From: an uncultured Thermoplasmatales archaeon
Lineage (GTDB): Archaea > Thermoplasmatota > SW-10-69-26
Direction: 5' to 3'
Assembly (NCBI GenBank): GCA_964396185.1
Contig: CAYNEI010000006.1
Coordinates: 11,081 to 75,080 of the forward strand
Length of the DNA stretch: 64,000 nucleotides
Below the pieces are notes generated by a model. It ran no database searches. It was not told where the DNA came from and worked only from the letters and a program-made list of their open reading frames with translations. Below are positions 12,722-47,150 of this stretch, in pieces. The position numbers were made by a program, and so were the translations under genes. Position 1 is the first letter of the stretch; each line of letters starts with the position of its first letter.

Positions 12722-12979
12722 TCAACCCTGCTCGTACACGTTCTTGCGGTGCCCGACGACCTGCACCCTGATCTCCTCGGCCTGGTGGTCGATCTCGGCG
12801 AGCACGCGGTAGTCCCCCACGCGCATGCGCACGAGGGGCGAGCCGGTGAGGGGCCGGAAGAAGCGCACCGGGTCGTGGCGTGCCTCACGGAGCTTGTCCA
12901 CGATCCTGGCCTGGATGGTTCGTGGGAGCTCAGCGAGGTCCTTGCTCGCCCGCTCCGAGACAAGTACCTGGAAACTCAC
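12722..12979 (-). CDS. relE: RelE/ParE-family type II toxin
   Basis: 85 aa; SERASKDLAEL...RMRVGDYRVLAEID...VGHRKNVYE RelE signature. Confidence 0.9.
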   Translation of the reverse strand: MSFQVLVSERASKDLAELPRTIQARIVDKLREARHDPVRFFRPLTGSPLVRMRVGDYRVLAEIDHQAEEIRVQVVGHRKNVYEQG

Positions 12980-13584: not shown

Positions 13585-14001
13585 GTGATCGACACCGGTG
13601 TCCTCGTGGGCGCGATGCTGGCACGGGACAGCTACCACGACGAGGCCGTCCCGATCTTCCAAGCTGCCGATGCTGGCACGATCCCGCCCGTTGTGGTCAC
13701 GGAGTTCGTCCTCGCCGAGACCCTGAACTTCCTCGTGAAGAAAGGGAACTCAGCGATCGGACGGGATGCGCTGGCTCGCCTGGAGGCAAGCACAGGCTTC
13801 CAGATCCGAGGCGTGCCCGCCGGCGTCGTCGACCGAGCCAAGGTCGAGGTCTTCCAGCGGTTCGACGGGCTCTCCTTCGTCGACGCGCTGACGGTGGCGT
13901 TCATGCAGGAGCATGGAATCGAGACCCTGTACTCCTTCGATGAGGGGTTCGACAAGGTCCCGAGTATCGCTCGGAGGAGCACGCTCCCGGCGCCCGGGTG
14001 A
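13585..14001 (+). CDS. vapC: PIN-domain VapC toxin
   Basis: IDTGVLV...E...LSFVDALTVA...LYSFDEGFD acidic PIN tetrad. Confidence 0.9.
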   Translation: MIDTGVLVGAMLARDSYHDEAVPIFQAADAGTIPPVVVTEFVLAETLNFLVKKGNSAIGRDALARLEASTGFQIRGVPAGVVDRAKVEVFQRFDGLSFVDALTVAFMQEHGIETLYSFDEGFDKVPSIARRSTLPAPG

Positions 14002-28773: not shown

Positions 28774-28800
28774 ACCAGGACACCAATCTCACCACAGCCC

Positions 28801-28830
28801 CGTTGTGACCGTTGTGCCTTTGCGGTGAAC
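28801..28830. repeat. Half copy of the heptamer-array element (F)
   Basis: Minus strand GTTCAC-CGCAAAG-g-CACAACG-gt-CACAACG; 25/30 identical to 34725-34754. Confidence 0.7.
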
Positions 28831-28841
28831 GTTCGCGGGTG

Positions 28842-30822: not shown

Positions 30823-32556
30823 TTGAAGAGGCTCGCGATCCCCCTCGTGCTCTTGCTCCTGGCCAGCGGCTGCATCGCCGGCCAGGGCGACGACGAAGCG
30901 CCCAGCCCCACGGGCTCAGCCGTGGCCGGAGCAGCAGATGGCGTCAACCTCGACGCGCTCAGCCAACCGGTCTTCGAGCTCGACTCCATCACCGAGACGT
31001 TCCTGGAGAGCCACGATGGCACGGTGCTCCATGCCGCTGAGTACCATCCCAACGTGACCGAGGACGACAAGACCCCTGTGGTCATCCAGCTCAGCCCGTA
31101 TTTCGGCAACCTCGCCGGTGAGGCCCAAGCACAGCCGAACGCGTATTTCGTCGAACAGCTCGTCGAGCGCGGCTACACGGTGGTCTTCGCCAGCGTGCGT
31201 GGCACCGGTTACAGCGGCGGCTGCTACCAGCTCGGCGGGCCTACCGAGGTCCAGGACGCCTACGAGCTCGTCAAGCACTACCACGAGGCGGACTGGAGCA
31301 ACGGCAAGGTGGGCCTCATCGGCGTCTCCTACCCTGGCACGACGCCCTGGCAGGCCGCCATCGCGGACCCGCCTGGCTTGGAGACGATCGTGCCCATCGA
31401 GGGCATCTCGGACATGTACCGCTACATGTTCCGCGAGGGAGCCGCCTACACCCACGGCCCGCTCTTCCCGACCTACTACACGGCGCTCACCGACTGGGTC
31501 ATCACGCCCAACAACGCCGACCAGGTCGACCACGTGCTCGGCCCCCTGGGTGCAGCCTGCCCGGATGTCGCCGAGACCATCGCCAACGGCTACCGGACCT
31601 GGGCGGATGGGAACCACGACGCGTTCTGGGACGAGCGGGACTACGAGGCTCAAGCCGACAAGATCAACACCAGCGTCTTCGTCGTCCAGGGCTTCCAGGA
31701 CTGGAACGTCGACCCGGACAACCAGATCCCCCTCTTCGCAGAGCTCGACGTGCCCAAGAAGGCGTGGCTCGGCCAGTGGGCCCACAACATCCCCTTCGGC
31801 AACAGCTACAACAGCGACTGGGACCGCCACGACTGGAACCTCACCATGGTGGCCTGGTTCGACCACTGGCTCAAGGGCATCGACAACGGCATCATGAGCG
31901 AACCCCCGGTGCTAGCCCAGACCAGCCAGGGCGACTGGCACCGTGAGCAGGCCTGGCCGCCTGAGCGCACCCAGACCCACCAGCTCTTCCTGGCACCAGA
32001 CGAGCAGCTCACCAGCGAACCCGACGCTGATGCTGGGTCCATCATGCTTGGGCCCTGGCTTGGCGATTTCGGAGGCGAGATGGGAGAGACGTTGCCTGGC
32101 GAGGAGCAGCTCACGTTCGCTTCTGAGGGGCTCCCCCAGGACACCCTGATCGTGGGCCAGCCCACCCTCACGGTCAACCTCACCACGGACCAGCCCGACG
32201 GTCACCTGGTCGCCTACCTCCACGACCTGGATGCTGAGGAGCACGGTGAGCTCGGGCATGCCATCGTCAACCTGGCCCACCGCGACTCGCGCGACCGGGG
32301 CGAGCTCATGCCCCTTGGTCAGACGACACAGGTCAGCCTCGAGTTCTACCCCCTGGACGCCTGGGTGCCCGCCGGCCACCGGCTCGGGTTCACGGTCCTG
32401 TTGGAGGACGGCAGCCGGATCCACCCCTCACCGTTCACCCCCACCTACGAGATCCATCTCGATGCCGAGCAGCCCTCGGTGCTCAGCTTCGAGGTGCTCC
32501 CGGACCCGGTCTTCGAGCCTGCCCCGGAGCAGGATGAGACGCTGTGGGCGACGTGA
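30823..32556 (+). CDS. CocE/NonD (peptidase S15) hydrolase lipoprotein
   Basis: LLASGC lipobox; VRGTGYSGG, WSNGKVGLIGVSYPG nucleophile elbow, QGFQDWNV, GQWAH. Confidence 0.9.
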   Translation: MKRLAIPLVLLLLASGCIAGQGDDEAPSPTGSAVAGAADGVNLDALSQPVFELDSITETFLESHDGTVLHAAEYHPNVTEDDKTPVVIQLSPYFGNLAGEAQAQPNAYFVEQLVERGYTVVFASVRGTGYSGGCYQLGGPTEVQDAYELVKHYHEADWSNGKVGLIGVSYPGTTPWQAAIADPPGLETIVPIEGISDMYRYMFREGAAYTHGPLFPTYYTALTDWVITPNNADQVDHVLGPLGAACPDVAETIANGYRTWADGNHDAFWDERDYEAQADKINTSVFVVQGFQDWNVDPDNQIPLFAELDVPKKAWLGQWAHNIPFGNSYNSDWDRHDWNLTMVAWFDHWLKGIDNGIMSEPPVLAQTSQGDWHREQAWPPERTQTHQLFLAPDEQLTSEPDADAGSIMLGPWLGDFGGEMGETLPGEEQLTFASEGLPQDTLIVGQPTLTVNLTTDQPDGHLVAYLHDLDAEEHGELGHAIVNLAHRDSRDRGELMPLGQTTQVSLEFYPLDAWVPAGHRLGFTVLLEDGSRIHPSPFTPTYEIHLDAEQPSVLSFEVLPDPVFEPAPEQDETLWAT

Positions 32557-32561
32557 CCAAC

Positions 32562-32676
32562 GACCTTGATCACGAAGGACACGAAGGTCCACCAAGGACG
32601 CGAAGAGCAGACGGGATTATAACCGTTATAATCTTGGTGCCCTTCGAGCTTCTTCGTGTCCTTCGTGATCGAGGTC
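32562..32676. repeat. Palindromic heptamer-array element A
   Basis: Arms 32562-32586 and 32652-32676 are 24/25 reverse-complementary; 4 CRCSAAG-type units per arm; central perfect IR GATTATAAC-C-GTTATAATC. Confidence 0.9.
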
Positions 32677-34459
32677 AACCTTCCTGCCCGACGACCGTCT
32701 TGATCTTCTGGGCCATCTTGGGCCCCACTCCCTCGACCTCGGTGAGCTCGGCCTGGGTGGCCTTGCGCACGCCATCCAGGCTACCGAAGTGGCGAAGCAA
32801 CCGCTTGCGCGTAACCTCGCCGACACCGGGCACGGCGTCCAACAGGCTCGTCGTGAGATCCCGGGTGCGCTTCTTGCGCCCGTAGGTGATGGCGAACCGG
32901 TGGGCTTCGTCCCGAGCCCGCTGCAAGAGCTGGAGGCCCGGGGCGTTCTCTGGGAGCCGGATGGGCGCCTGCCAGCCGGGCCGCCAGAGCTCCTCCTCGC
33001 GCTTGGCGATCCCGAGGATCTCCACCTCCTCCAACCCGAGCTCGCGGGCGGCCTCCCTGGCCGCGTTGGTCTGGGCTTGACCTCCATCGATGAGCAGAAG
33101 ATCCGGCAGGGGTTCGCCCTCTTCGACCAGGCGTCGCAGCCGCCGGGTCACGACCTCTCGGATGGCGGCCACGTCGTCGTTCTTCTCCTGGCTGATCTTG
33201 TAACGGCGGTAGCCTTGCTTGTGGGCGCGACCGTCCTTGAACGTCACGAGCGCTCCTACCACGCCCTTGCCGCTGTGGTGGCTGATGTCGATGCACTCGA
33301 TGCGGCTGGGCGGGGTCTCCAGGCGCAAGCGCTCCTGGAGGTCCACCACGCCGGGGGCCGGGCCACGGGAGCGATGCGCGCGGGCGAGCTGGTAGCCAGC
33401 GTTCTTGGCCGCCAGGTCGAGCAGGCGCTTGTGCTTGCCCCGCTGAGGGACGCGTAGCTCCACCTTGTGGCCAGCCTTGGCGGCTAGAGCCTCGGAGAGC
33501 TCGTCGGGCTGCTGGGGCTGGAAGGGGATGGCCAGGGTGTGGGGGACCGCGGGTCGGTGCTCGTAGTACCGGGCGATGAACTCAGCCAGGAGCTGGGGCT
33601 TGTCCTCCTCGGTGGCTCCCGGCAGGCGGAAGTGCTGGGTGTCCACGATGCGGCCATCACGCCGTGGGAGCACCACGGCCACGCTGCGCTCCGGTGTCCC
33701 CTCCATGGCGATGGCATCGACGTCCTCGCGGTGGCTGGCGAAGACGGCTTGTTTGTCGAAGAGCCGCCGGATGCCCTGGATGCGGTCGCGCAGGCGGGCG
33801 GCCCGCTCGAACTCCAGGTCCTGGCTCGCCTCGGCCATCCGGTCCTCGAGCACCTCGATGGCCGGCTTGGGGTTGCCGCGGAGCACCCGGGTGACCTCAG
33901 CCACGGCCTCGTCGTAGGCCTCGTCGATCTGCTTGAAACAAGGCGCCATGCAGAGACCGATGTCGTGCTTGATGCAGCCCTCCGGCAGCTCGCGCGGGCA
34001 GTCCCGGATGCCGAAGACCTCGCGCAGGATGTTGACGAGCTCCTTTGCTGAGGAGACGTCCGGGAAGGGCCCGTAGTAGTCGCCGGGCTCGCGCTGGTCG
34101 CGCACGATGTCGATGCGTGGGTGGGCCTCGTCGGAGACCAGGATCCAGGGGTAGCGCTTGTCGTCGGTGAGACGCACGTTGTACTTGGGCTGGCGAGCCT
34201 TGATGAGCGAGGACTCCAGCAGGTAGGCCTCCTGCTCGCTGTCCACCAGCACGCTCTCCACATGGTGGGCCTCCGAGAGCATCTTGGCCAGCCGGGGCGG
34301 GTGGTCGGCCGAGAAGTAGCTCATCACCCGGGCGCGCAGGCTGGCCGCCTTGCCGATGTACAGGGGGTCACCGTTCTCGTCCGTGAACGTGTAGACCCCC
34401 GGCTGGCGAGGGAGGTGGCGTGCCTCGCGGCGCAAGCGATCAGGGGGCTCGTCGGCCAA
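32675..34459 (-). CDS. uvrC: Excinuclease ABC subunit C
   Basis: GIY-YIG (PGVY...LYIGKA), PKYNV..DDKRYP, UVR domain, IECIDISH, LIDGG, RDEAHRFA, HhH. Confidence 0.97.
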   Translation of the reverse strand: MADEPPDRLRREARHLPRQPGVYTFTDENGDPLYIGKAASLRARVMSYFSADHPPRLAKMLSEAHHVESVLVDSEQEAYLLESSLIKARQPKYNVRLTDDKRYPWILVSDEAHPRIDIVRDQREPGDYYGPFPDVSSAKELVNILREVFGIRDCPRELPEGCIKHDIGLCMAPCFKQIDEAYDEAVAEVTRVLRGNPKPAIEVLEDRMAEASQDLEFERAARLRDRIQGIRRLFDKQAVFASHREDVDAIAMEGTPERSVAVVLPRRDGRIVDTQHFRLPGATEEDKPQLLAEFIARYYEHRPAVPHTLAIPFQPQQPDELSEALAAKAGHKVELRVPQRGKHKRLLDLAAKNAGYQLARAHRSRGPAPGVVDLQERLRLETPPSRIECIDISHHSGKGVVGALVTFKDGRAHKQGYRRYKISQEKNDDVAAIREVVTRRLRRLVEEGEPLPDLLLIDGGQAQTNAAREAARELGLEEVEILGIAKREEELWRPGWQAPIRLPENAPGLQLLQRARDEAHRFAITYGRKKRTRDLTTSLLDAVPGVGEVTRKRLLRHFGSLDGVRKATQAELTEVEGVGPKMAQKIKTVVGQEG

Positions 34460-34578
34460 CAGGATGGAAGGGGGGGCTCAGAGGGATGAAGCTTCGGATG
34501 GTTCACCGCCCCCTTCCAGGCGGAGGGCTGCGGCAGCTCGAGGTCGGAGGGAGGGTAACAGTTGCTCAAGCCCAGGCG

Positions 34579-34685
34579 GATGACGGCCACAGGGGTCACA
34601 GGGGGTACACAGGGGTCACAGAGAAACATCGGGTCGGTCGTTCCTGTGTCCCCTGTGCTTCTCTGTGTTCTCTGTGTCTATCATC
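34579..34685. repeat. Palindromic heptamer-array element B
   Basis: Left arm 4x CACAGRG, right arm 4x YYCTGTG, outer GATGA...TCATC. Confidence 0.85.
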
Positions 34686-34724
34686 AGCGCTGCCTCGCAC
34701 CCCACCAACCACTCCCGAGCCATC

Positions 34725-34754
34725 CGTCGTGCTCGTTGCGCCTTTGTGGTGAAC
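34725..34754. repeat. Half copy of the heptamer-array element (G)
   Basis: Minus strand GTTCAC-CACAAAG-g-CGCAACG-ag-CACGACG, 5 nt after the stop at 34760. Confidence 0.7.
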
Positions 34755-34759
34755 GCCGG

Positions 34760-35734
34760 TCAGCTCAGGATCGCGTACCCCTCAGGCGCTTGCTGGTTGT
34801 AGAAGGCGCTCAGGTAGTGCGTGAACTCCTGCTGGATGGGCGCGCACGCGCTGACCACGCCGGGCAGGCAGTCGCTGTCCGCGAAGGCCCGGATGATCAG
34901 CGACCAACCGCTGTCCCAAAAGTTGTAACCGCAGAAGTCGTCGTCCTGCTCGGTGTCGTTGATGCCTTGGCAGACGTCGGTGAAGTTCTGGCTGGTCCGC
35001 TCCCAGGCGTCCTTCTCCAGCCGGATGAGATCCCCGTTCTCCAGCCCGGCATCGAACAGGTTGGCCCGGTAGTCGTAGACGAAGCCCTGGATCCACATGT
35101 CCACGGAGAGCATGGTGCTGCCAGCGGGTCCGCCCGAGCCTGGGATCTCGATCTCGTAGACGAGGGTGTCAAGGGGTGCTTCGAGCTCCGGGTACACATC
35201 GAACTTGTCGTTCGTCGAGTTCTCGGCGACGATCTGCGGCACCGCGCACAACGCGACGGCGTTGCTCGTGACGGCGTAGACGGGGCTGGGCCGCGTCGTC
35301 CACCCGACGCCGCACTCGATGAAGCCGCTCATCTCGACGACTTGCTCGAAGGGCTCCTCGATGGCGCCCCTGGCGAGCAGGAAGTCCACGATGGCGGCGT
35401 CGTTGGGCTCCACCGTCACGAGCTGCTGGCTCGAGATGAAGCCGTCGGCGCGGACAGCGACGGTGTACGTGCCGGGATCGATGCGCGAGAACGCGAAGCT
35501 CCCGTCACTGGCGCTCTCGGCCGTCTCCCCCGTCTCGACGAGGGTCACGTTCACGCCCTCGATGGGCTGGATCGCCTCGTCGGTGACGGTGCCTTCGATG
35601 CCGCCCAAATCGCTGGTCACCTGCGCGCGTTGCTTCTGGATCGGGCCATCCGTCTCGGCATCGCTGCCCCCAAGACAGCCAGCCAGGCCGGTGGTCAACA
35701 GCAGCAAGGCCAGGACCAGGATCGTGCGTCGCAT
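34760..35734 (-). CDS. Carboxypeptidase-regulatory-like domain lipoprotein
   Basis: LLLTTGLAGC lipobox; GGIEGTVTDE..PIEGVNV...DGSFAF..IDPGTYTV..RADGF. Confidence 0.85.
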   Translation of the reverse strand: MRRTILVLALLLLTTGLAGCLGGSDAETDGPIQKQRAQVTSDLGGIEGTVTDEAIQPIEGVNVTLVETGETAESASDGSFAFSRIDPGTYTVAVRADGFISSQQLVTVEPNDAAIVDFLLARGAIEEPFEQVVEMSGFIECGVGWTTRPSPVYAVTSNAVALCAVPQIVAENSTNDKFDVYPELEAPLDTLVYEIEIPGSGGPAGSTMLSVDMWIQGFVYDYRANLFDAGLENGDLIRLEKDAWERTSQNFTDVCQGINDTEQDDDFCGYNFWDSGWSLIIRAFADSDCLPGVVSACAPIQQEFTHYLSAFYNQQAPEGYAILS

Positions 35735-35802
35735 CGCGCCTGAGTTCCTGTGAGGAGACTTGAAGCTACCGGTGGCGACATCCAACTGGGGGAGGGTGGG
35801 TA

Positions 35803-35877
35803 ACCTGGATCACGAAGGACACCAAGGGGTCACGAAGGACACGAAAGCAAAGAGGTCACGCGAGGACGATCAAGGTC
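35803..35877. repeat. Degenerate heptamer-array element C (left arm intact)
   Basis: ACCTGGAT-CACGAAG-ga-CACCAAG-gggt-CACGAAG-ga-CACGAAA ... GATCAAGGTC; the ends match those of element A. Confidence 0.8.
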
Positions 35878-35907
35878 TGTGGTGGGCCGCACCAAGCGTT
35901 CTCTGGG

Positions 35908-36651
35908 CTAGTCGGGACGCACGCCCGCCGCCTCTAGCACCTCGACCAACTGTGCCTGCCAATGCCGGCCCCCGTCCTTGTTGGCGTGCGGGTTGGCAGG
36001 GCTCGGGTGCAGAAGGTAGGTCACCTCGATGGCGTGCTCGTCCTCCCGCTTGGCCACCGCGGCAGTGGCCCGGCGCTGGGCGAAGCGCCCGATGCCCACG
36101 ATGGTGGTGGGCTGGAAGTGGTCGATGAGCGCGTCGAGGTGCTCGTCACAGGCCTCGAAGATGCGCTGCCGGTCCGATTTGCGCAACCGCGGGGGGGTGA
36201 GGTTGCCGCCGTCCTCGTCGAAGAAGAGCAGCGGGCAGTAGTTCGCGATGAAGAGGTGCTGGTAGGCTTGCTGGAGGGTCCCGTAAACCTGTTCGAGGCC
36301 CCCGTAGAGGCGGCTGCCGCTGACCTCGTTGCGCTGGCAAGCCAGCCCCTCCACCACGCGGGCATCCCGCGGGTCATCGGGTTGCGCCACGTCGATCTCG
36401 GTGATGCCCATGGCGCGCACCTTGTCCACGTCCCCGAAGGGCACGCCGGTCTGGCCCATGCCCCAGGGGCCCGGGTTCATGCCCAACAGGAGCACAGGGC
36501 GAGGGAGGGGGGTTCCGCCGAAGGCCTCGGCGTACTGGCGGTGGCCGTCCCAGGCGTACGCGAGGGGGTTGTATGTCCAGGCCACCGGGGCCTCGAAGGG
36601 CATGTCGTGGCACCGTTTCGAGAGCTGGCGGGCCGCCTCCACGGGGTGCAT
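35908..36651 (-). CDS. SMUG1-type (family 3) uracil-DNA glycosylase
   Basis: YNPLAYAW, GMNPGPWGMGQTGVPFG (motif 1), EVSGSRL, NYCPLLF, HPSPANP (motif 2). Confidence 0.9.
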   Translation of the reverse strand: MHPVEAARQLSKRCHDMPFEAPVAWTYNPLAYAWDGHRQYAEAFGGTPLPRPVLLLGMNPGPWGMGQTGVPFGDVDKVRAMGITEIDVAQPDDPRDARVVEGLACQRNEVSGSRLYGGLEQVYGTLQQAYQHLFIANYCPLLFFDEDGGNLTPPRLRKSDRQRIFEACDEHLDALIDHFQPTTIVGIGRFAQRRATAAVAKREDEHAIEVTYLLHPSPANPHANKDGGRHWQAQLVEVLEAAGVRPD

Positions 36652-36941
36652 GGGTGGCCCAGCGCGCCGGTGGCCTTGAAGCTCCCGGTCGTCGACGCAT
36701 GTCGCAACGTTGAAGCCCGACCCCGCCCACCATGGCCATGGGCCAAGAGAGAGAGACCTCCTGGCTCGAACAAGTCCATCCTGGAACCCTGTCCTGGGAT
36801 GCGCCCAGGAACCTGGGATCACCGCTTCTAGCCCTTCTGGAGGCGAACTGTGGTCCCTGCCGCTGGCCGCCTTGGCCCAAGGGCGCCTGCCAGGGTGCTA
36901 TGTAGGGGTTGTAAGAGAGCTTGAACCCCGGGAGTACGGTC

Positions 36942-37979
36942 ATGGTCGAGCGCCGCACCCACATCGTCCGCGGAGTCGTCGGTGCAGCCGTCGGCCTCTC
37001 GGTGCTCGCCGTGGTCATCCACGCCGTGGATGCGTCCAAGGTCCTCGCGGCCCTGGCATCGGCGAACTGGATCTGGCTGGCCATGGCGGCGCTTGCCACG
37101 CTCATCCACTACGCGCTTGTCGCCGAGCGCTTCACCGCCTTCATGCGCCTGTTCACCACCGACGTGCCCGACGCAGTCCTGCGCCGCACAGGCATGGTGT
37201 CCAGCGCGCTGGGCCGTGCCATCGGCCTGGCCGGCATCGTGGCCTTCTCCATCGAGCTCGGCGCGGTCAAGCGCTTCGGCGGCCGCGTTCGCGACCTCGT
37301 CGGCGCCTCGCTCGTGAACTCCTCGATGAAGATCGCCATCCGCGGCACCGCCGCGGTGGTGGGCCTGGCCTGGGTCTTCGGCATCCCGACCCTCCAGCCG
37401 GGGGCGCTCACGGCCTCGGTGTCCACCGTACACAGCTTCGAGTACGCGCTGATCGGCTTCGCCGCCGTCATCGGCTTGCTGGCCGTCGGCGGAGCAGTCA
37501 TGTACTTCGGTCGCGCCGCCTGGCACCGCCTCGAGGACGCTGGACGCGCGCAAGACTTCCGGGAGGGGGCAGGCAGCGTGGTCACCGGGATCCAGGCCAT
37601 CCTCCACAAGCCCCGGCGGCTTGCGGTCCCCACCCTGTGGCTGGCCGCCGAGATCCTCGTGCTCACCACCGTGCTCTGGTTCTGCCTCGGTGCACTGGGC
37701 CTGTGGGTCAGCCCAGGCGTGGCCTTCGTGGCTTACGCTGTGGCTGGCTTCTCCCGTATCGTGTCGATCATCCCTGGCAACCTGGGCGTCCAGGAGGCCG
37801 GTGTGACCGCTGCCCTGGCCCTCATGGGCGTCCCGTGGGCAGCTGGCCTCGCCGCTGTGATCCTGGCCCGCACGCTCACCACCTGGCTGCCGGCGCTCAT
37901 CTGCCTCCCCCTGGGCTGGGGCCTGCTCACCGACGGGGGACCAGGCAGCCAACCCGTTGCGGACCCAGCGGTTTTGTAA
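36942..37979 (+). CDS. Lysylphosphatidylglycerol-synthase TM-domain / UPF0104 flippase-like protein
   Basis: Multi-TM; SIIPGNLGVQEAG...LARTLTTWLP signature. Confidence 0.8.
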   Translation: MVERRTHIVRGVVGAAVGLSVLAVVIHAVDASKVLAALASANWIWLAMAALATLIHYALVAERFTAFMRLFTTDVPDAVLRRTGMVSSALGRAIGLAGIVAFSIELGAVKRFGGRVRDLVGASLVNSSMKIAIRGTAAVVGLAWVFGIPTLQPGALTASVSTVHSFEYALIGFAAVIGLLAVGGAVMYFGRAAWHRLEDAGRAQDFREGAGSVVTGIQAILHKPRRLAVPTLWLAAEILVLTTVLWFCLGALGLWVSPGVAFVAYAVAGFSRIVSIIPGNLGVQEAGVTAALALMGVPWAAGLAAVILARTLTTWLPALICLPLGWGLLTDGGPGSQPVADPAVL

Positions 37980-38012
37980 CACCGGAGCGCCATCCAGGCT
38001 CGGTCAGCGCGC

Positions 38013-39035
38013 ATGCGGGATGGAACGAAGCGGTTCATCCGGATCCTCGGCGGCACCCTGCTCGGAGTCGCCGTGCTGGCCCTCCTGGCACGATCCGTGG
38101 ACCCCGCTGCCGTCTGGCGCAACCTGGCCCAGGCCAGCGTCCAGCTCTTGGCCATCGCCTTCGCCGTCACGGCCATCCACTACGTGCTCGTCGGCTACCG
38201 CTTCGCCTCGTTCTTCGAGCTCTTCTCAGACGACGTACCCACCCCCGTGCTCGTGCGCACAGGCATCCTGGCCAGCGCGCTCGGCAGGGCCATCGGGTTC
38301 GCCGGCCTCGCCGGGGCATCGGTCCGGCTGGCCGTCATCAAGCGCCGGGGCGGGCGTGGCCGGGACGTCATCGCGGCCTCCATCGTCAACCACGCGTTCA
38401 AGCTGACCCTTGTGCTCGTGCTGGCACTGGGCGGCTTGCTCTACACGTTCGGCTTCCCCACCGTGCACGCCCTCCCGCTGCCCGGCTCGCTCTTCGGTCT
38501 CGGCGGGGTCGTCCTGCTCAGCATCGCTGTCGGGCTCTGGATCTTCGTTGTCCTGGCCCGAGCCAAGGTCCCCATCCTCGTCGAGCGCGCATGGGAGGCG
38601 CTCTCCAGCGGGCGCCACGGCGAACAAGTCCTCGACCTCCACGCCACGGTCATCACCGGCGTGGACACCATGCGCGACCACCCGGATCGCTTGTACAAAC
38701 CCAGCCTGCTCCTGGCTGGCGAGGTGCTCCTGCTTGTCGGCGTGCTCTACCTCTGCTTCCTTTCCCTGGGCACACCGGTGGCGCCAGGCATCCTGCTCGT
38801 GGGCTACGCGGTCGGCACGCTGAGCCGATCGCTATCCATCGTGCCAGGCGGGCTGGGCATCCAGGAGGGCAGCATCGCCGGGGCGCTCGTGCTCATGGGC
38901 GTGAGCTGGGAGGTGGGCCTGGCAGGCGTGGTGCTCTTCCGCATCGTGACCGACTGGCTCCCCGGCATGGCCTCGCTGCCCCTGGGCTGGGAGCTGTGGA
39001 CCTCCGGGGCCGATGAGGACGCAAGCCGAGCCTGA
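38013..39035 (+). CDS. UPF0104 flippase-like protein (paralog)
   Basis: SIVPGGLGIQEGS...LFRIVTDWLP; shares SALGRAIG.AG with the previous gene. Confidence 0.8.
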   Translation: MRDGTKRFIRILGGTLLGVAVLALLARSVDPAAVWRNLAQASVQLLAIAFAVTAIHYVLVGYRFASFFELFSDDVPTPVLVRTGILASALGRAIGFAGLAGASVRLAVIKRRGGRGRDVIAASIVNHAFKLTLVLVLALGGLLYTFGFPTVHALPLPGSLFGLGGVVLLSIAVGLWIFVVLARAKVPILVERAWEALSSGRHGEQVLDLHATVITGVDTMRDHPDRLYKPSLLLAGEVLLLVGVLYLCFLSLGTPVAPGILLVGYAVGTLSRSLSIVPGGLGIQEGSIAGALVLMGVSWEVGLAGVVLFRIVTDWLPGMASLPLGWELWTSGADEDASRA

Positions 39036-39068
39036 TGGTACACTGAGCCCTGGCGGTCACCCAACCCA

Positions 39069-39815
39069 TCACCCACCACCGGTGGCGCGCCGCATGGCCA
39101 CGGCTGAAGCCCCGATGCTCAGGAAGACGTAGCCCACCAGGACCCCGACAGCGGCCAACAGCGTCGAGGTCTCGCCCACGCCCAGGATGGCGTAGTTCAT
39201 GCCATCAAGCAGGTAGGTCAGCGGGAAGAGCAGCGCCGGGATCTCCAGGTAGATCGGCAGCGCCTCCACGGCCACGAACACGCCACCCAGGATGACCTGA
39301 GGCGTGATCACCAGCGGGATGAACTGGAGCACCTGGAACTCGTTGCGCGCGAACAGCGAGACCACGATCCCCAACCCCAGGGCGGTCAACGCCCCAAGCA
39401 GCTCGAGCGCGAAGAACAGGGCCACGCCGTTCTCGAACGTGAGATCCAAAAACCACGCGCCCGCGGCCAGCAGGACCACGGCCTGGATCAGGGCGAGCAC
39501 GCCGAACCCGAGCACGTAGCCCATCACCACGCCCCAGCGCGAGGCCGGCGAGGCGAACACCCGCTCGATGGTGCCCATCTGGCGCTCGCGCAGGAAGCCC
39601 ACGGCGGTCAGCAGGAAGGTGAGCATGAAGACGAAGACCGCCATCATGGCCGCCTTGGCTGGCCCCAGATCGAAGCCCTGGGCTGGCACGACAGCGAACA
39701 CCTCGCTGAACAGCCAGATGAGCAGGATCGGCGCCCCGAACACCAGGCCCAGGGTGCGCCGGTCCCCGCGCACCGAGCGCAGCACCCGGCTGGCCACGGC
39801 CAGGCTGCCGGTCAC
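39069..39815 (-). CDS. ABC-2 type transporter permease
   Basis: RGDRRTLGL, RERQMGTIERVFASP, ARNEFQVLQFIP, FPLTY. Confidence 0.9.
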   Translation of the reverse strand: MTGSLAVASRVLRSVRGDRRTLGLVFGAPILLIWLFSEVFAVVPAQGFDLGPAKAAMMAVFVFMLTFLLTAVGFLRERQMGTIERVFASPASRWGVVMGYVLGFGVLALIQAVVLLAAGAWFLDLTFENGVALFFALELLGALTALGLGIVVSLFARNEFQVLQFIPLVITPQVILGGVFVAVEALPIYLEIPALLFPLTYLLDGMNYAILGVGETSTLLAAVGVLVGYVFLSIGASAVAMRRATGGG

Positions 39816-40567
39816 GCGATCCCCTCCGGGGCGCCGGCCAGGGCCAGGAAAGCCTCCTCGAGTTCATCCGTGCCCGTGCGGGCGAGCAGCGCGTCCGGGG
39901 TGTCCACCGCCAGCACCCGGCCTTGGCGAAGGAAGACCACCACGTCGCAGCGGCCCGCCTCGCCCAGGTAGTGGGTGGACAGCAGCAGCAGGCTCCCCTC
40001 GTCGCGCAGGTCGCGGAACGCGGACCACATCCGGGATCGAAGCTCGGGATCCACGCCCACGGTGGGCTCATCGAGCACCAGCAGCTCCGGGCTGTGCACG
40101 ATGGTGCTGGCCAGGCTCACCCGGCGCTGCATGCCACCGGAGAGCTCGGCCACTGGGTCATCCACGCGGTCCGAGAGGCCGACCGTCGCCACGGCTTGCT
40201 CCACGGCTTGAGCACGCGTGGCGCGATCGATCCGGTGGAGGCGAGCGAAGAACGTCACGTTCTCGCGCACGGTCAGGTCCAGGTAGATCGCCAGGCCCTG
40301 GGGCATGTAGCCCACCCTCGGGCCGCCGGACCCGAAGAGCTCGCTGGGTCTGCGCCCGAACACCTCAACCTCCCCAGCATCCGGTGCCACCAGGCCAAGC
40401 AGCACCTTGATCAGCGTGGTCTTGCCCGCCCCGTTGGGGCCCACGAGCCCCACGATGGTGGGGCCCTCCAGGTCCAGGGTGAGCTCGTCCAGGGCCGTGA
40501 TCTTGCCGTAGCGTTTGCTGAGCCCATCCACGTGCAGGCTCGGTCCGCTGGTCCCCGCGCCGTCCAT
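39812..40567 (-). CDS. ABC transporter ATP-binding protein
   Basis: GPNGAGKTT, LSGGMQRR, LDEPTVGVDP, STH; start 40567 or 40582. Confidence 0.92.
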   Translation of the reverse strand: MDGAGTSGPSLHVDGLSKRYGKITALDELTLDLEGPTIVGLVGPNGAGKTTLIKVLLGLVAPDAGEVEVFGRRPSELFGSGGPRVGYMPQGLAIYLDLTVRENVTFFARLHRIDRATRAQAVEQAVATVGLSDRVDDPVAELSGGMQRRVSLASTIVHSPELLVLDEPTVGVDPELRSRMWSAFRDLRDEGSLLLLSTHYLGEAGRCDVVVFLRQGRVLAVDTPDALLARTGTDELEEAFLALAGAPEGIA

Positions 40568-40628
40568 GGGGACCGTTAGCATCGCCGGAGCATAAACGAG
40601 ATGTAACGATGCCAGTATCCTGGGTGAC

Positions 40629-41372
40629 ATGGATCCGGCGGTCTCCGTGCTCGAGCGCCTCGGGTTGACAGGCTACGAGGCCAAGACCTACGTCACGCTT
40701 GTGGGGCTTGGTCCAGCCCACGCAGCCGACATCGCCGATGCCGCGGATGTGCCCCGCACACGGATCTACAGTGTGCTCGCCGAACTCGAGGACGAGGGCT
40801 GGGTGCGCTCTGGGAGCGGTCGTCCCAAGACGTTCCAGGCCGAGCGGCCCAAGGACCGGATCGGGGCGTTGCGTGACGGGCTCATCGACGAGGTCGACCA
40901 GGCGATCCCAGCCTTGGAGGCCCAGTTCGAGGAGGAAGCCACCCGGTTCGGGGGACCGATCTGGCTGCTGGACACCGCCCAAGCCGTGGCCCGCCGGACC
41001 CTCGAGATGGTCCGCTCGGCCCGCGAGGAGCTCCTGATGGCCACCATGTTCCCGCTCCCATGCGACGGCGATGCCCTCGAAACGGCCCTCGGTGGTGCCA
41101 TCGATCGGGGCGTGGGCGTCCGGGTCGTGGCACCGGACCGGGAGAGGGCTGCTGGCTACCTCTCTTTGGGGGCCCATGTCCGGACGGCATGGGTGCCGCC
41201 CCGCTTCCTCTTCATGGACGGCCGCCAGGCGCTTTTGGCCTACCGGATGGAGGCATCCAGCGACCAGGGCGAGGTGCGCGGCGTGTGGATCCCGGCCCCG
41301 GAGTTCGTTGAGCACATCGCACCGGTCCAGGAGGCCATCTGGGGGATGGGGGAGCCGCTGGAGCTCGAGTAG
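40629..41372 (+). CDS. TrmB-family transcriptional regulator
   Basis: LGLTGYEAKTYVTL...VPRTRIYSVLAELEDEGWV...RPKTF; divergent from the ABC operon. Confidence 0.9.
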   Translation: MDPAVSVLERLGLTGYEAKTYVTLVGLGPAHAADIADAADVPRTRIYSVLAELEDEGWVRSGSGRPKTFQAERPKDRIGALRDGLIDEVDQAIPALEAQFEEEATRFGGPIWLLDTAQAVARRTLEMVRSAREELLMATMFPLPCDGDALETALGGAIDRGVGVRVVAPDRERAAGYLSLGAHVRTAWVPPRFLFMDGRQALLAYRMEASSDQGEVRGVWIPAPEFVEHIAPVQEAIWGMGEPLELE

Positions 41373-41375
41373 CCC

Positions 41376-44237
<2,862 letters not shown>

Positions 44238-44323
44238 GGTGGTTAGGCGGTCGTAGTCGGGCTCTTCACTTGAGCCTTCCCTCCAGGGGAGCCGGACGGA
44301 AGGTTGGGGTGCGACGGCGACGT

Positions 44324-44536
44324 TCAACACGGAGACACGGAGCCACGGAGCGAACGGAGGACCGGAGGGGGGTCGGCTAGAGGGAAGTGCAAGGGGGACC
44401 CGGGAGGGTGGCGGGTTGGAGTCGCCTCGACCGCCTGGCTGGAGACACTATACCTCTACCGTCGTTGTCTCCCTCTCCTTACAGCCTCTATTCTTGCCCC
44501 CTCCGTTCGCTCCGTGTCTCCGTGCATCCGTGTTGA
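44324..44536. repeat. Palindromic heptamer-array element D
   Basis: 37-nt arms 44324-44360 and 44500-44536, 34/37 reverse-complementary; MACGGAG-type units; purine-rich then pyrimidine-rich interior. Confidence 0.9.
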
Positions 44537-44616
44537 CTCCTCTTGTCCTCCACGGCTGACCGTCTCCCCCAGTTGGTACTGAACAACTATTTAGGACCAG
44601 GTTGTTCCATGGTTCC

Positions 44617-46566
44617 ATGAGGCTAGGGATCGCGTTGTGTGTAGCTCTGCTGCTTACCACGCCCGTTTTGGCAGGCTGCCTCGCGTCGGACGACCCGACC
44701 GCGACACCGGAGGCTCCGGGTGAGCCCAGCGATGACCGCTTGGACCGCGCGACGGTGCCAGGCTTCGAGCCCAACCGATTCCTGCTCGACGGCGCCCGGC
44801 CCCACTCGACGTTCGTCTCTGAGGGCGCCGAGCCCATCATGTTCTCCGATCGCGAGGATGGGGTGCTGCTCATCGGCGACACCCTCGGGGTCCACCGGAG
44901 CACGGACCGTGGCGAGACCTGGGCCCGGGTCACGGACATCTTCGACTTCAAACCCGGCCTCTTCGGCGACGGTCCAGGCATCGCCCAGGACGACGAGGGC
45001 GTGCTCTACGCCGCCGACACCAACGGCCAGATCATCGACGTGGCCCGCTCCACCGACGGCGGCGCCACGTGGACACCGGCCACGGTCCCACCGGACGTCT
45101 CCGGCGTGGCCGACCGACCCTGGATCGCGGCCACCGGGGATGGCATCGTGAGCTTCGTGGTCTTCGAGTTCGAGCAACAACAAGAGACCTGCTACCAGTC
45201 CACCGACGGAGGCCAGACCTTCCCCACCCGCAGCCACATCAACGGCGGGGCACCCAACGCAGGCAACTTGGTCTACACCGACGACGGCGCCCTCTGGTAC
45301 GCCCAAGCCGACAACCTCTGGTGGTGGACCGGCAGCTGCATGGACTTCCCCAACCGGTTGAACCTCCCCGGGAGCCCCGGCCCCCAGATCTTCACCCAGG
45401 TCGACACCGACGGAGACGCGGTCTACGCCGCCTACCCCCTCCACGACAGCTCGGGGCTGCGCGTGGCCGCCACCCAGACCGGCAGCTCGGCCCGCGATAT
45501 CGTTCTCACGCCAGAGGACGGCACGAACGCGCTCGTCACCAACACGTTCACCACCATCAGCGTCACAGACGACGAGGTCGCCATCGGCTGGTACGGCTCC
45601 GAGACCGACGGCAACCCGGCCTCGTCCTCATTCAGCGGCTCGTTCAACGTCTTCACCGCTCAGATCAGCGACTTCTGGACCCGGTCCGACACGGATCTCA
45701 CCTGCACATCCGCTGGTGTCACCTGTACGAGGGTCACGGACGAGCCCAACCACGTGGGCGGCCTGTGCATGAGCGGGACGACCTGCACCGCCGACCGCGA
45801 CCTGCTCGACTATTTCGGCATCGACCACGACCCCGACGGCGCCTTACATGTGGCCTACGGTCACGACGGCGCCGGCAGCAACGCTGTCGTCCGCTACGCC
45901 TGCATCGGGGACGCCTGCACGCCCGACAACCTGCCCCCGACGCCCTCCTTCACCGCTGAGTGCTCCTCGCTCAGCTGCGTCTTCGATGCATCCGCCACGA
46001 CGGATCCCGACGGCGACACCCTGAGCTTCAACTGGGACTTCGGCGATGGCAACACCGCCACCGGCGAGCAGACCAGCCACACCTTCACCACCGGTGGGCC
46101 CCACGAGGTCACCCTCGAGGTCAGCGACGGGACCACCACGGCCACCCTCGTCGAGGAGTTCTTCATCCCCACCAAGGGTGAGGGCAAGCTTGGCGTGGCC
46201 CCCATCAAGCCGAACTTCGACATCGACGAGCCCGTGGAGATCCAGGTCACCGTCACCGACATGGACGACAACCCCATCCCAGGTGTGCCCGTGGACGTGC
46301 TGGCCCACTACGACCCACCAGCCACGAACAGCATCCACCAAGGCCGCACCTTCCTGGTCATGGAAACCCTGGGCATCATGTACCACACTGCAACGGTCAC
46401 TACGGGCGAGGATGGCACCGCCATCTGGACGGTCCCCAGCGATCTGGCCGCCATCAACGAGCAGGCCAGTGGGCCCAGCGGCACCGAGAGCTACCGGGTC
46501 GAAGCCACCGTGGACCCCACCAACCTCTTCGCGTCCACGACCTACACCGTCGGCCCCTCGCTCTAG
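44617..46566 (+). CDS. BNR/Asp-box propeller + PKD domain lipoprotein
   Basis: PVLAGC lipobox; STDRGETW, STDGGATW; LLDYFG; PKD WDFGDG. Confidence 0.85.
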   Translation: MRLGIALCVALLLTTPVLAGCLASDDPTATPEAPGEPSDDRLDRATVPGFEPNRFLLDGARPHSTFVSEGAEPIMFSDREDGVLLIGDTLGVHRSTDRGETWARVTDIFDFKPGLFGDGPGIAQDDEGVLYAADTNGQIIDVARSTDGGATWTPATVPPDVSGVADRPWIAATGDGIVSFVVFEFEQQQETCYQSTDGGQTFPTRSHINGGAPNAGNLVYTDDGALWYAQADNLWWWTGSCMDFPNRLNLPGSPGPQIFTQVDTDGDAVYAAYPLHDSSGLRVAATQTGSSARDIVLTPEDGTNALVTNTFTTISVTDDEVAIGWYGSETDGNPASSSFSGSFNVFTAQISDFWTRSDTDLTCTSAGVTCTRVTDEPNHVGGLCMSGTTCTADRDLLDYFGIDHDPDGALHVAYGHDGAGSNAVVRYACIGDACTPDNLPPTPSFTAECSSLSCVFDASATTDPDGDTLSFNWDFGDGNTATGEQTSHTFTTGGPHEVTLEVSDGTTTATLVEEFFIPTKGEGKLGVAPIKPNFDIDEPVEIQVTVTDMDDNPIPGVPVDVLAHYDPPATNSIHQGRTFLVMETLGIMYHTATVTTGEDGTAIWTVPSDLAAINEQASGPSGTESYRVEATVDPTNLFASTTYTVGPSL

Positions 46567-46650
46567 AGGCGGCCAACGGAGCGCAGGCCTGTGGGGCCGG
46601 CCTGCGCTATCCGATGAGCTCAAGAACCAGTGGCCACTCTGAGGCTTGCT

Positions 46651-47037
46651 ATGGCGCGACAGCTCACGGTCTTCATCGAGAACCGTCCAGGGGCGCTCTC
46701 CGAGATCACCGAGGTCCTCTCCGAGGCAGGGGTCAACATCGTCTCCATCATGGTGGAGGGCGAGCATGACTTCGGCTTCGCCCGGATCCAGGCCCACTCC
46801 TTCCGCGACGCGCTGGCCGCCCTGGAGGATGCTGGCTTCCAGGTCAAAACAGGCGACGTGCTCGTCCTCCAGCTGGCCAACCGGTCCGGCGAGCTCCACG
46901 ATGTGCTGGAGCGCTTGGCCGAGGGTGGTGTGAACGTCCAGAACATGTTCGGCACCGTGGGCGGAGGCGATGCTGGCGAGCTGGTGCTCAGCGTTGACGA
47001 CCCCGAGCGCGCCAAGGCGATCCTCGAGCTCGATTGA
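46651..47037 (+). CDS. ACT-domain protein (two ACT repeats)
   Basis: QLTVFIENRPGAL...AGVNI; LANRSGEL...GVNV. Confidence 0.9.
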   Translation: MARQLTVFIENRPGALSEITEVLSEAGVNIVSIMVEGEHDFGFARIQAHSFRDALAALEDAGFQVKTGDVLVLQLANRSGELHDVLERLAEGGVNVQNMFGTVGGGDAGELVLSVDDPERAKAILELD

Positions 47038-47047
47038 GCCCCTTACG

Positions 47048-47150
47048 AACCTTCCACCGCGGAGGCGCGGAGAGCGCGAAGGACGCGGAGGAACCAGCGG
47101 AGGAAGGCCCTTCACGGTCTCCGCGCCCTCCGCGCCTTCGCGGTGAGGTT
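47048..47150. repeat. Palindromic heptamer-array element E
   Basis: Left AACCTTCCAC + 4x CGCGRAG; right 3x CTYCGCG + GTGAGGTT. Confidence 0.9.

Follow-up and report, generated by a model that had tools for sequence, protein, structure and literature searches.

The window analyzed here, a 64,000-nucleotide (nt) stretch of contig CAYNEI010000006.1 of an uncultured Thermoplasmatales archaeon (assembly GCA_964396185.1), carries a set of palindromic intergenic elements, each built from two inverted rows of short tandem heptamers. Five of these (A to E) had been delineated in a first-pass annotation of the DNA, and two further members (F and G), missing from that list, were identified in this work. 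On balance, all seven are probably gene-less members of a selfish, nuclease-associated dispersed palindromic repeat, with the heptamer rows as putative symmetric docking sites, most likely for the nuclease that the repeat encodes. Directly supported are the nesting of a small GxxExxY gene between the arms of gene-bearing copies, the co-occurrence of gene and arrays among genomes, an empty orthologous site of a gene-bearing copy, the preservation of the heptamers over the spacers and centers, and the lack of compensatory changes between the arms.

The TIGR04256 profile (GxxExxY; Pfam PF13366, PDDEXK_3) matches exactly two genes in the genome (denoted G000; 3,168,415 bases in 181 contigs, 66.8% GC, 89.5% complete), and both lie between inverted heptamer arrays, one on contig C1 and the other on contig C10. 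Their products are 40% identical, and the arms of the C10 gene share both the unit class and the outer GATGAC termini of window element B. An association of 8-9-nt-periodic palindromes with GxxExxY genes, mentioned in the first-pass annotation, is therefore borne out by both such genes of this genome. The window itself, as that annotation also held, contains no GxxExxY gene, and no transposase or integrase family was matched among its 43 called open reading frames (ORFs). The HUH/Y1 family PF01797 was not matched anywhere in the 89.5%-complete genome, in a search whose control matched the family in 6 of 14 known genomes.

The same nesting is found in many other genomes. Paired arms, searched for automatically (at least 2+2 units, at least five units in total, at most one mismatch), were detected around 24 of the 30 GxxExxY genes of the class, 45 of the 68 genes of the phylum set, and 59 of the 80 closest bacterial relatives. 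Three of the six class genes that were missed have a single visible arm or lie at a contig end, and the spacing lists of the two arms around the class genes are mirror images of each other. In many archaeal copies (L028, L031, L033, L040, L046, L048, and L049), the stretch between the left array and the start codon contains ..CCGG(A/G)GAA.. and, a few nucleotides further on, a weak AT-rich box, possibly the GxxExxY gene's own promoter. The gene-bearing element on C10 (locus L002) is bordered on both sides by further partial CACAGGG-class arms, indicating that the elements cluster. Two CACAGAG-type elements of another genome, G006 (L185 and L187), lie inside inverted hexamer runs (CAGCCT and AGGCTG on opposite sides), which form a second, outer layer of mirrored tandem repeats.

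Among genomes, the gene was detected in 12 of the 21 members of the class and in 27 of the 401 of the phylum. The 12 class genomes with the gene contain 100, 3, 15, 91, 52, 10, 19, 195, 9, 98, 79, and 56 arrays, and the nine without it contain 0, 1, 0, 0, 0, 0, 0, 7, and 1. The best relative of the C1 protein comes from a Gemmatimonadetes metagenome-assembled genome (63% identity), and the best archaeal relative is 58% identical. This closeness to a bacterial protein, together with the patchy presence of the gene, is in line with the "multiple transfers, mixed clades" described for PDDEXK_3 (PMC3424549).

On C1, the gene-bearing element spans 550 nt and lies directly behind the stop codon of the upstream gene, ahead of the next gene. 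In genomes G001 and G004, the same gene pair is closer by ~556 and ~531 nt, respectively, and the GxxExxY gene is absent, so that these genomes present an empty orthologous site. The spacer at the same site in G003 (L205) and G002 (L206) holds other hairpin-forming modules, separated by two to three extra copies of the last 20-30 nt of the upstream gene, stop codon included (..GTCGAGTGGGAGTGA..), as if insertions had occurred repeatedly and had duplicated the gene end. At the site orthologous to window element A, two genes abut in G001, with no element between them, and other genes occupy the place in G002, G003, and G005; these family-level relatives are too divergent (72-80%) for exact borders to be drawn.

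Within the genome, the elements make up one family with a common architecture and a copy number far above chance, as the first-pass annotation had proposed. The array pattern suggested there returned 130 arrays when scanned over the whole genome. A slightly wider pattern returned 240, compared to 43 in the reversed genome and 44-60 in five simulations under a third-order Markov model. Inverted pairs, defined as an array with its reverse complement no more than 700 nt downstream, number 50, against 0, 0, 0, 1, 0, and 0 in these controls, and the opposite order of the pair occurs only three times in the genome. By unit, 168 arrays at ~116 loci were assigned to six classes: CACAACG/CACAAAG (65 arrays; window members F and G), CGCGGAG/CGCGAAG (33; E), CACGGAG (27; D), CACGAAG/CACCAAG (21; A and C), CACAGGG/CACAGAG (16; B), and CACGACG (6; no window member). 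The further 72 arrays were left unclassed and are partly chance matches. The outer inverted terminus beyond the arrays is class-specific, with a shared core ..GAAC.G.TCAC. Telomere-like end addition, considered as a source of the inverted arrays, is ruled out by these conserved termini.

The placement of the elements was assessed against gene calls from a crude caller of our own (2,262 genes, 79% coding). By these calls, 154 of the 240 arrays are outside genes. In-frame insertion of arrays into genes was considered and rejected, given that ORF-internal arrays mostly lie upstream of the likely true start or are chance matches. The 80 loci with two called neighbors comprise 45 tandem, 23 convergent, and 12 divergent spacers, against a background of 1319, 388, and 383; spacers between convergent genes are thus enriched in copies (23/80 loci vs 388/2090 spacers). 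Where an element end faces the 3' end of a gene, it lies within 30 nt of the stop codon in 33 of 91 cases; where it faces a 5' end, it is that close to the start codon in 4 of 69.

The first-pass annotation had noted that the heptamer unit differs between copies although each complete copy remains self-complementary, and had read this as covariation, suggestive of selection on a hairpin, or of a symmetric multimeric protein site, rather than of simple copy-paste. The unit differences and the preserved self-complementarity are real, but they do not amount to covariation selected on a hairpin. Elements A to E belong to different sub-lineages, and their units vary only at those positions of a single word, CRCNRAG, that are degenerate across the whole family. 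Among 538 units of 88 gene-bearing elements, this word reads C (96%), R, C (98%), N, R, A (89%), G (84%), where positions 1-3 are inflated because the register was set by the fit to CRC. Position 4 is the most variable letter, both within and between elements, and is the only one at which the units of elements encoding proteins 83, 76, 75, and 73% identical differ. On the protein tree (88 tips), the unit letters changed at least 14, 26, 10, and 6 times at positions 2, 4, 5, and 7, respectively; for a recognition code linking protein residues to unit letters, this tree offers only four supported independent pairs.

Tests for pairing gave no sign of compensatory change. Within a class, the right arm of the same copy matches the left arm no better than the right arm of another copy does (0.736 vs 0.732 in class CACAACG, 0.731 vs 0.767 in CGCGGAG, 0.805 vs 0.839 in CACGGAG, and 0.757 vs 0.768 in CACAGGG), and the observed values are reached in 796-1965 of 2000 shuffles. 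RNAalifold, applied to nine copies of the class of element E, found no covariation (term +0.56), with double changes in 2 of 27 pairs and A.C breaks as common as G.U. In 84 gene-bearing elements aligned from the left arm alone, 1700 of 1854 unit positions (92%) are mirrored in the right arm, compared to 198 of 302 positions (66%) in the spacers of 1-3 nt between the heptamers; an earlier count gave 94.5% for units and 57.5% for spacers, with 31.6% for random partners. Two young families, with the units CACCAAG in G020 (8 of 8 copies) and CACAGAG in G006 (9 of 9 copies), have nearly invariant arrays and centers that are not conserved. Selection for pairing would guard the spacers as it does the units, and selection for a word would not; hence, it is the heptamers, and not the base pairs, that are kept. 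Selection on a hairpin rather than copy-paste, as suggested in the first-pass annotation, falls with the lack of compensatory changes, the very result which that annotation had named as telling against it. Its alternative, a symmetric multimeric protein site, is the better fit to the mirroring of the units over the spacers. In an exploratory comparison based on the crude gene calls, 12 of the 15 copies located between co-directional genes fold better in antisense than in sense, which points the same way.

Re-reading of the window sequence confirmed the coordinates and heptamer units of elements A to E (Table 1). The unit period across the elements is 8-10 nt, and at least three CRCNRAG-like heptamers per arm, in mirrored arms, are found at this period in A, B, D, and E, and in one arm only in C. 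By repeat search, the arms are 45 nt long and 80% complementary in A, 27 nt and 78% in B, 37 nt and 92% (34/37) in D, and 37 nt and 81% in E; by manual reading, the outer 25 nt of A match at 24 of 25 positions. Element A occupies the spacer between a peptidase gene (stop codon at 32554-32556) and uvrC (stop codon at 32675-32677); D separates the diverging uvrA gene from a PKD-domain gene, and E lies between the convergent ACT-domain and uvrB genes. The 139-nt center of D is unrelated to the centers of other copies. Element C still has its outer right terminus, GATCAAGGTC, despite the loss of the right array. In the truncated member F, a left terminus TCTCAC-CACAGCC is fused straight onto the right arm CGTTGTG/CGTTGTG/CTTTGCG plus GTGAACGTT, and the lone arm of G reads CGTCGTG CTCGTTGCG CCTTTGTG GTGAACGCC. 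Folded as a single strand, A reaches -70.4 kcal/mol (z-score -10.6), with z-scores of -6.2 for B and -6.65 for E, none of which was equaled in 200 shuffles; for C, no hairpin is predicted (z-score +0.13; 106 of 200 shuffles as good), consistent with its lost right array. Contigs from other soil sequencing runs span A (94% alike) and E, so that the elements are not assembly artifacts.

Table 1. Coordinates of the palindromic elements, GxxExxY genes, and other features. Window positions count from the first nucleotide of the window; other positions are given as contig:range in G000 unless another genome is named.
Feature	Position	Strand	Description
Element A	32562..32676	.	CACGAAG/CACCAAG class; left array 32571-32605, right array 32633-32667; outer inverted termini GACCTTGATCAC / GTGATCGAGGTC
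Element B	34579..34685	.	CACAGGG/CACAGAG class; left array 34588-34623, right array 34643-34676; outer termini GATGAC / ATCATC; upstream of uvrC
Element C	35803..35877	.	CACGAAG class; 4-unit left array 35811-35846 kept, right array lost
Element D	44324..44536	.	CACGGAG class, period 8; left array 44328-44360, right array 44500-44532
Element E	47048..47150	.	CGCGGAG/CGCGAAG class, period 9; left array 47058-47090, right array 47119-47142
Element F	28785..28833	.	truncated CACAACG-type copy between two convergent genes
Element G	34725..34757	.	lone CACAACG-type right arm adjoining B
AT-rich 17-nt palindrome ATTATAACCGTTATAAT	32616..32632	.	center of element A; two TTATAA words 9 nt apart
Other exact sites of the 17-nt palindrome	C92:5350-5366, C111:1401-1417, C112:3018-3034, C129:562-578, C24:23108-23124, C19:25020-25036, C48:6358-6374, C18:45483-45499, C15:52574-52590
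GxxExxY gene	C10:6777-7118		CACAGGG arms, GATGAC outer termini
GxxExxY gene	C1:154347-154694		CACAAAG/CACAACG arms
Partial arms beside the C10 element (L002)	C10:6440-6560, C10:7290-7370		CACAGGG class
L185	G006, C16:2168-2375		CACAGAG-type element inside inverted hexamer runs
L187	G006, C21:63923-64132		CACAGAG-type element inside inverted hexamer runs
L205	G003, C61:~2485-2960		spacer at the C1 site
L206	G002, C40:~2490-2930	reverse	spacer at the C1 site
ParE-type toxin gene	12725-12979	-
PIN-domain gene	13585-13998	+

The AT-rich 17-nt palindrome at the center of A (RTTATAAYNRTTATAAY), made up of two TTATAA words, resembles an archaeal TATA box, in an archaeon of 67% GC. It has 10 exact sites in G000, the one in the window included, whereas the 20 other class genomes contain no exact site. 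It forms the center of elements from three unit classes, and a few copies are solitary, including one ~21-30 nt ahead of an ATG; a degenerate copy lies on the left side of the C10 element. The archaeal character of the genome is seen in its gene for TBP and, within the window, in aEF-1alpha and in regulators of the TrmB and HVO_0163 types. The ParE-type toxin gene and the nearby PIN-domain gene of the window probably belong to toxin-antitoxin modules unrelated to the palindromes.

The GxxExxY product is a predicted PD-(D/E)XK nuclease of ~125 residues with an intact D...ExK triad. In an alignment of 28 sequences, D61 and K73 are invariant and E71 is nearly so, and the G..E..Y residues are likewise kept. 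An AlphaFold model (mean confidence score, pLDDT, 95.7) matches best to minimal PD-(D/E)XK nucleases, namely Cas4 SSO0001 (Z 8.3), 3ijm (Z 8.1), the BpuSI nuclease domain (Z 8.0), and Hjc (Z 6.9), with no clear nearest family among these fold matches; a sequence search among solved structures found no relevant relative. PF13366/TIGR04256 is a large protein family represented in both prokaryotic domains and in viruses, and the one survey to mention it by name gives its function as unknown (PMC3424549).

In overall design, each arm starts with an outer terminus (..GAAC.G.TCAC) followed by three to four CRCNRAG heptamers at a period of 8-10 nt, with the other arm mirrored, and the full-length form holds the small GxxExxY gene between the arms. 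Under the reading favored here, the heptamers would act as sequence-specific docking sites, symmetric on both arms, with the GxxExxY nuclease as their presumed binder and as the enzyme that would cut the DNA. The unit as a whole would be a selfish insertion, gained and lost between genomes and settling mainly just behind stop codons, and the short copies would persist without the gene.

Several observations weigh against this reading. The spacers are mirrored above chance (66% vs ~32%), so that some pairing constraint, or a shared origin of the arms, remains. The class genomes are kin, and the co-occurrence count therefore overstates their independence. Whole copies within the genome are 70-83% identical, with none near-identical. 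The centers of 44 copies have nothing in common beyond a single weak match, and no remnant of the GxxExxY gene was found in the centers of the short copies, which are therefore not recognizable as deletion derivatives. No consistent direct repeat, as expected of a target-site duplication, was found at the 50 paired loci. Strains 92-95% alike retain both A and E, and these loci thus show no sign of recent movement; among the contigs of four soil runs, no empty site for any of A to E was found, and a joint of positions 32605 and 32637 (32605>32637), present in all four runs, has short sides only. The short copies would accordingly be best seen as an old population that shares arms only, and not as the product of a recent copy-paste burst. 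Furthermore, 87 of the 168 classed arrays belong to classes without a matching gene-bearing copy in this genome (CACGGAG, CGCGGAG, CACGAAG, and CACGACG), and G006, which is 99% complete, has many CACAGAG arrays, yet none of its three GxxExxY genes has such arms. A strict cognate relation of gene and repeat thus fails. The half of the arrays that lack a cognate gene is the main weakness of the nuclease-associated reading: either the word is read loosely, for which the logo leaves room, or the gene came later, invading a repeat that is not its own.

The former possibility can be extended into a bolder and distinctly more tentative proposal, in which the CRCNRAG rows would be the docking code of GxxExxY nucleases at large, and the partnership would be a functional counterpart, in both Archaea and Bacteria, of the system formed by REPINs, that is, doublets of repetitive extragenic palindromes (REPs), and RAYTs, the REP-associated tyrosine transposases, with a hydrolytic PD-(D/E)XK enzyme in place of the transposase. 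Loose reading of positions 2, 4, and 5 would let one or two nuclease genes serve several repeat lineages that share a genome. The near-invariance of the arrays beside decaying centers would follow if the nuclease kept cutting and the dispersed copies kept serving as repair templates for each other, through homing or gene conversion.

An alternative that we consider unlikely, but the most serious of those weighed, is that the arrays are binding sites of a host protein, like the REP and bacterial interspersed mosaic element (BIME) sites of enterobacteria, or of another mobility enzyme that escaped notice, and that the GxxExxY gene is a secondary parasite, a free-standing homing nuclease that cuts the middle of the palindrome and is copied in via arm homology. 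The invariable location of the gene at the palindrome center would suit such a parasite, and so would the excess of gene-less over gene-bearing copies (~114 loci vs 2), the several array classes that have no gene to match them within their genome, and the absence of gene remnants from gene-less centers. However, a host system independent of the gene is not seen, the class genomes without the gene being nearly array-free, and there is no other candidate enzyme, neither a Y1/HUH gene in the genome nor a transposase or integrase among the 43 ORFs of the window.

Less probable still is that the elements act as RNA, in the form of long 3'-untranslated hairpins that stabilize, end, or process transcripts and resemble the stems of ORF-bearing intervening sequences (IVSs) in 23S rRNA, with the protein as an RNA-binding or RNA-cutting partner. 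The great stability of the predicted hairpins, the stop-codon bias, and the excess of convergent neighbors would all be expected under this scenario. Some of the matched PD-(D/E)XK folds cut RNA (splicing endonucleases, Z 5.4-6.2; a cap-snatching endonuclease, Z 5.6), and the IVS of Coxiella offers a precedent of a selfish ORF-bearing element that is excised by RNase III (PMC4990558). The scenario is nevertheless at odds with the lack of covariation, the poor mirroring of the spacers, and the better folding of the antisense strand in most co-directional copies, within the limits of the crude gene calls; in addition, a hairpin cannot form at C or at the many other loci that have one arm only. 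Manual reading showed that the hairpins of A, D, and E are not followed by a T-run, and a terminator function was rejected for these three. In a search of window positions 28000-50000 against Rfam 15, there was no rRNA match and no match to A-D, and E gave only chance-level matches to microRNA hairpins (23-32 bits vs cut-offs of 80-105).

Finally, it is highly improbable that these are ordinary miniature inverted-repeat transposable elements (MITEs) of an unidentified transposase with the small nuclease gene as mere cargo: their terminal inverted repeats, high intergenic copy number, and several sub-families would fit, but the copies are alike in their arms only and not in their interiors, no target duplication was seen, the supposed cargo belongs to a constant gene family across Archaea and many bacterial phyla, and no transposase was found beside the elements. 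Both an RNA-level function and an ordinary MITE fit the evidence less well than a nuclease-associated repeat does.

By analogy, REPIN/RAYT is the closest known system in both layout and logic. In each case, short extragenic palindromes are present in many copies, as inverted doublets able to fold, with several sequence groups per genome and a single-copy enzyme gene flanked by the repeats (PMC3116915). The enzyme here, however, is a ~125-residue PD-(D/E)XK nuclease and not a Y1 HUH transposase, no PF01797 gene being found in the genome; the arms are rows of a 7-nt word at a period of 8-10 nt instead of a single REP; the host is an archaeon; and no transposition intermediate is known for the elements. 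The ORF-bearing IVS in the 23S rRNA of Coxiella burnetii is likewise a small, horizontally acquired selfish stem of inverted ends around a small ORF (PMC4990558), but A to E lie between protein-coding genes and not in rRNA, and the IVS ORF belongs to the S23p family (PF05635), which was not found in the genome. Tandem heptamer repeats have also been described as abundant in intergenic DNA, and left unexplained in the part of that account which concerns them (PMC6344855); these have a period of 7, unlike the 8-10 nt seen here.

MITEs with an autonomous parent resemble the elements in their inverted ends, in their intergenic location, and in the short gene-less copies that outnumber the gene-bearing form, but differ from them in that, here, the interiors of the copies are unrelated, no target duplication was found, and the parent encodes a hydrolytic nuclease and not a transposase. 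Foldback-type transposons of eukaryotes have long inverted ends built of short tandem repeats, a resemblance of layout only: their arms are far longer, their hosts are eukaryotic, and their proteins are unrelated. No published description of the gene-plus-array unit was found in the literature searched, although a curator's remark on flanking repeats may exist in the NCBIfam entry. The partnership of repeat and GxxExxY enzyme thus seems to be undescribed in print.

The present analysis contributes an archaeal genome with ~100 loci and six co-resident classes of such repeats, tests that separate the conservation of a word from that of pairing, and an empty orthologous site for a gene-bearing copy. 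A constant pairing with a DNA word that is simple and can be counted provides PF13366/TIGR04256 with a testable substrate. If the nuclease-associated reading is true, these elements would represent a second kind of enzyme-plus-repeat system beside REPIN/RAYT, one with a different chemistry, and would explain part of the short periodic intergenic repeats seen in many prokaryotes. In this archaeon, such elements fill ~100 spacers, including those around uvrA, uvrB, and uvrC.

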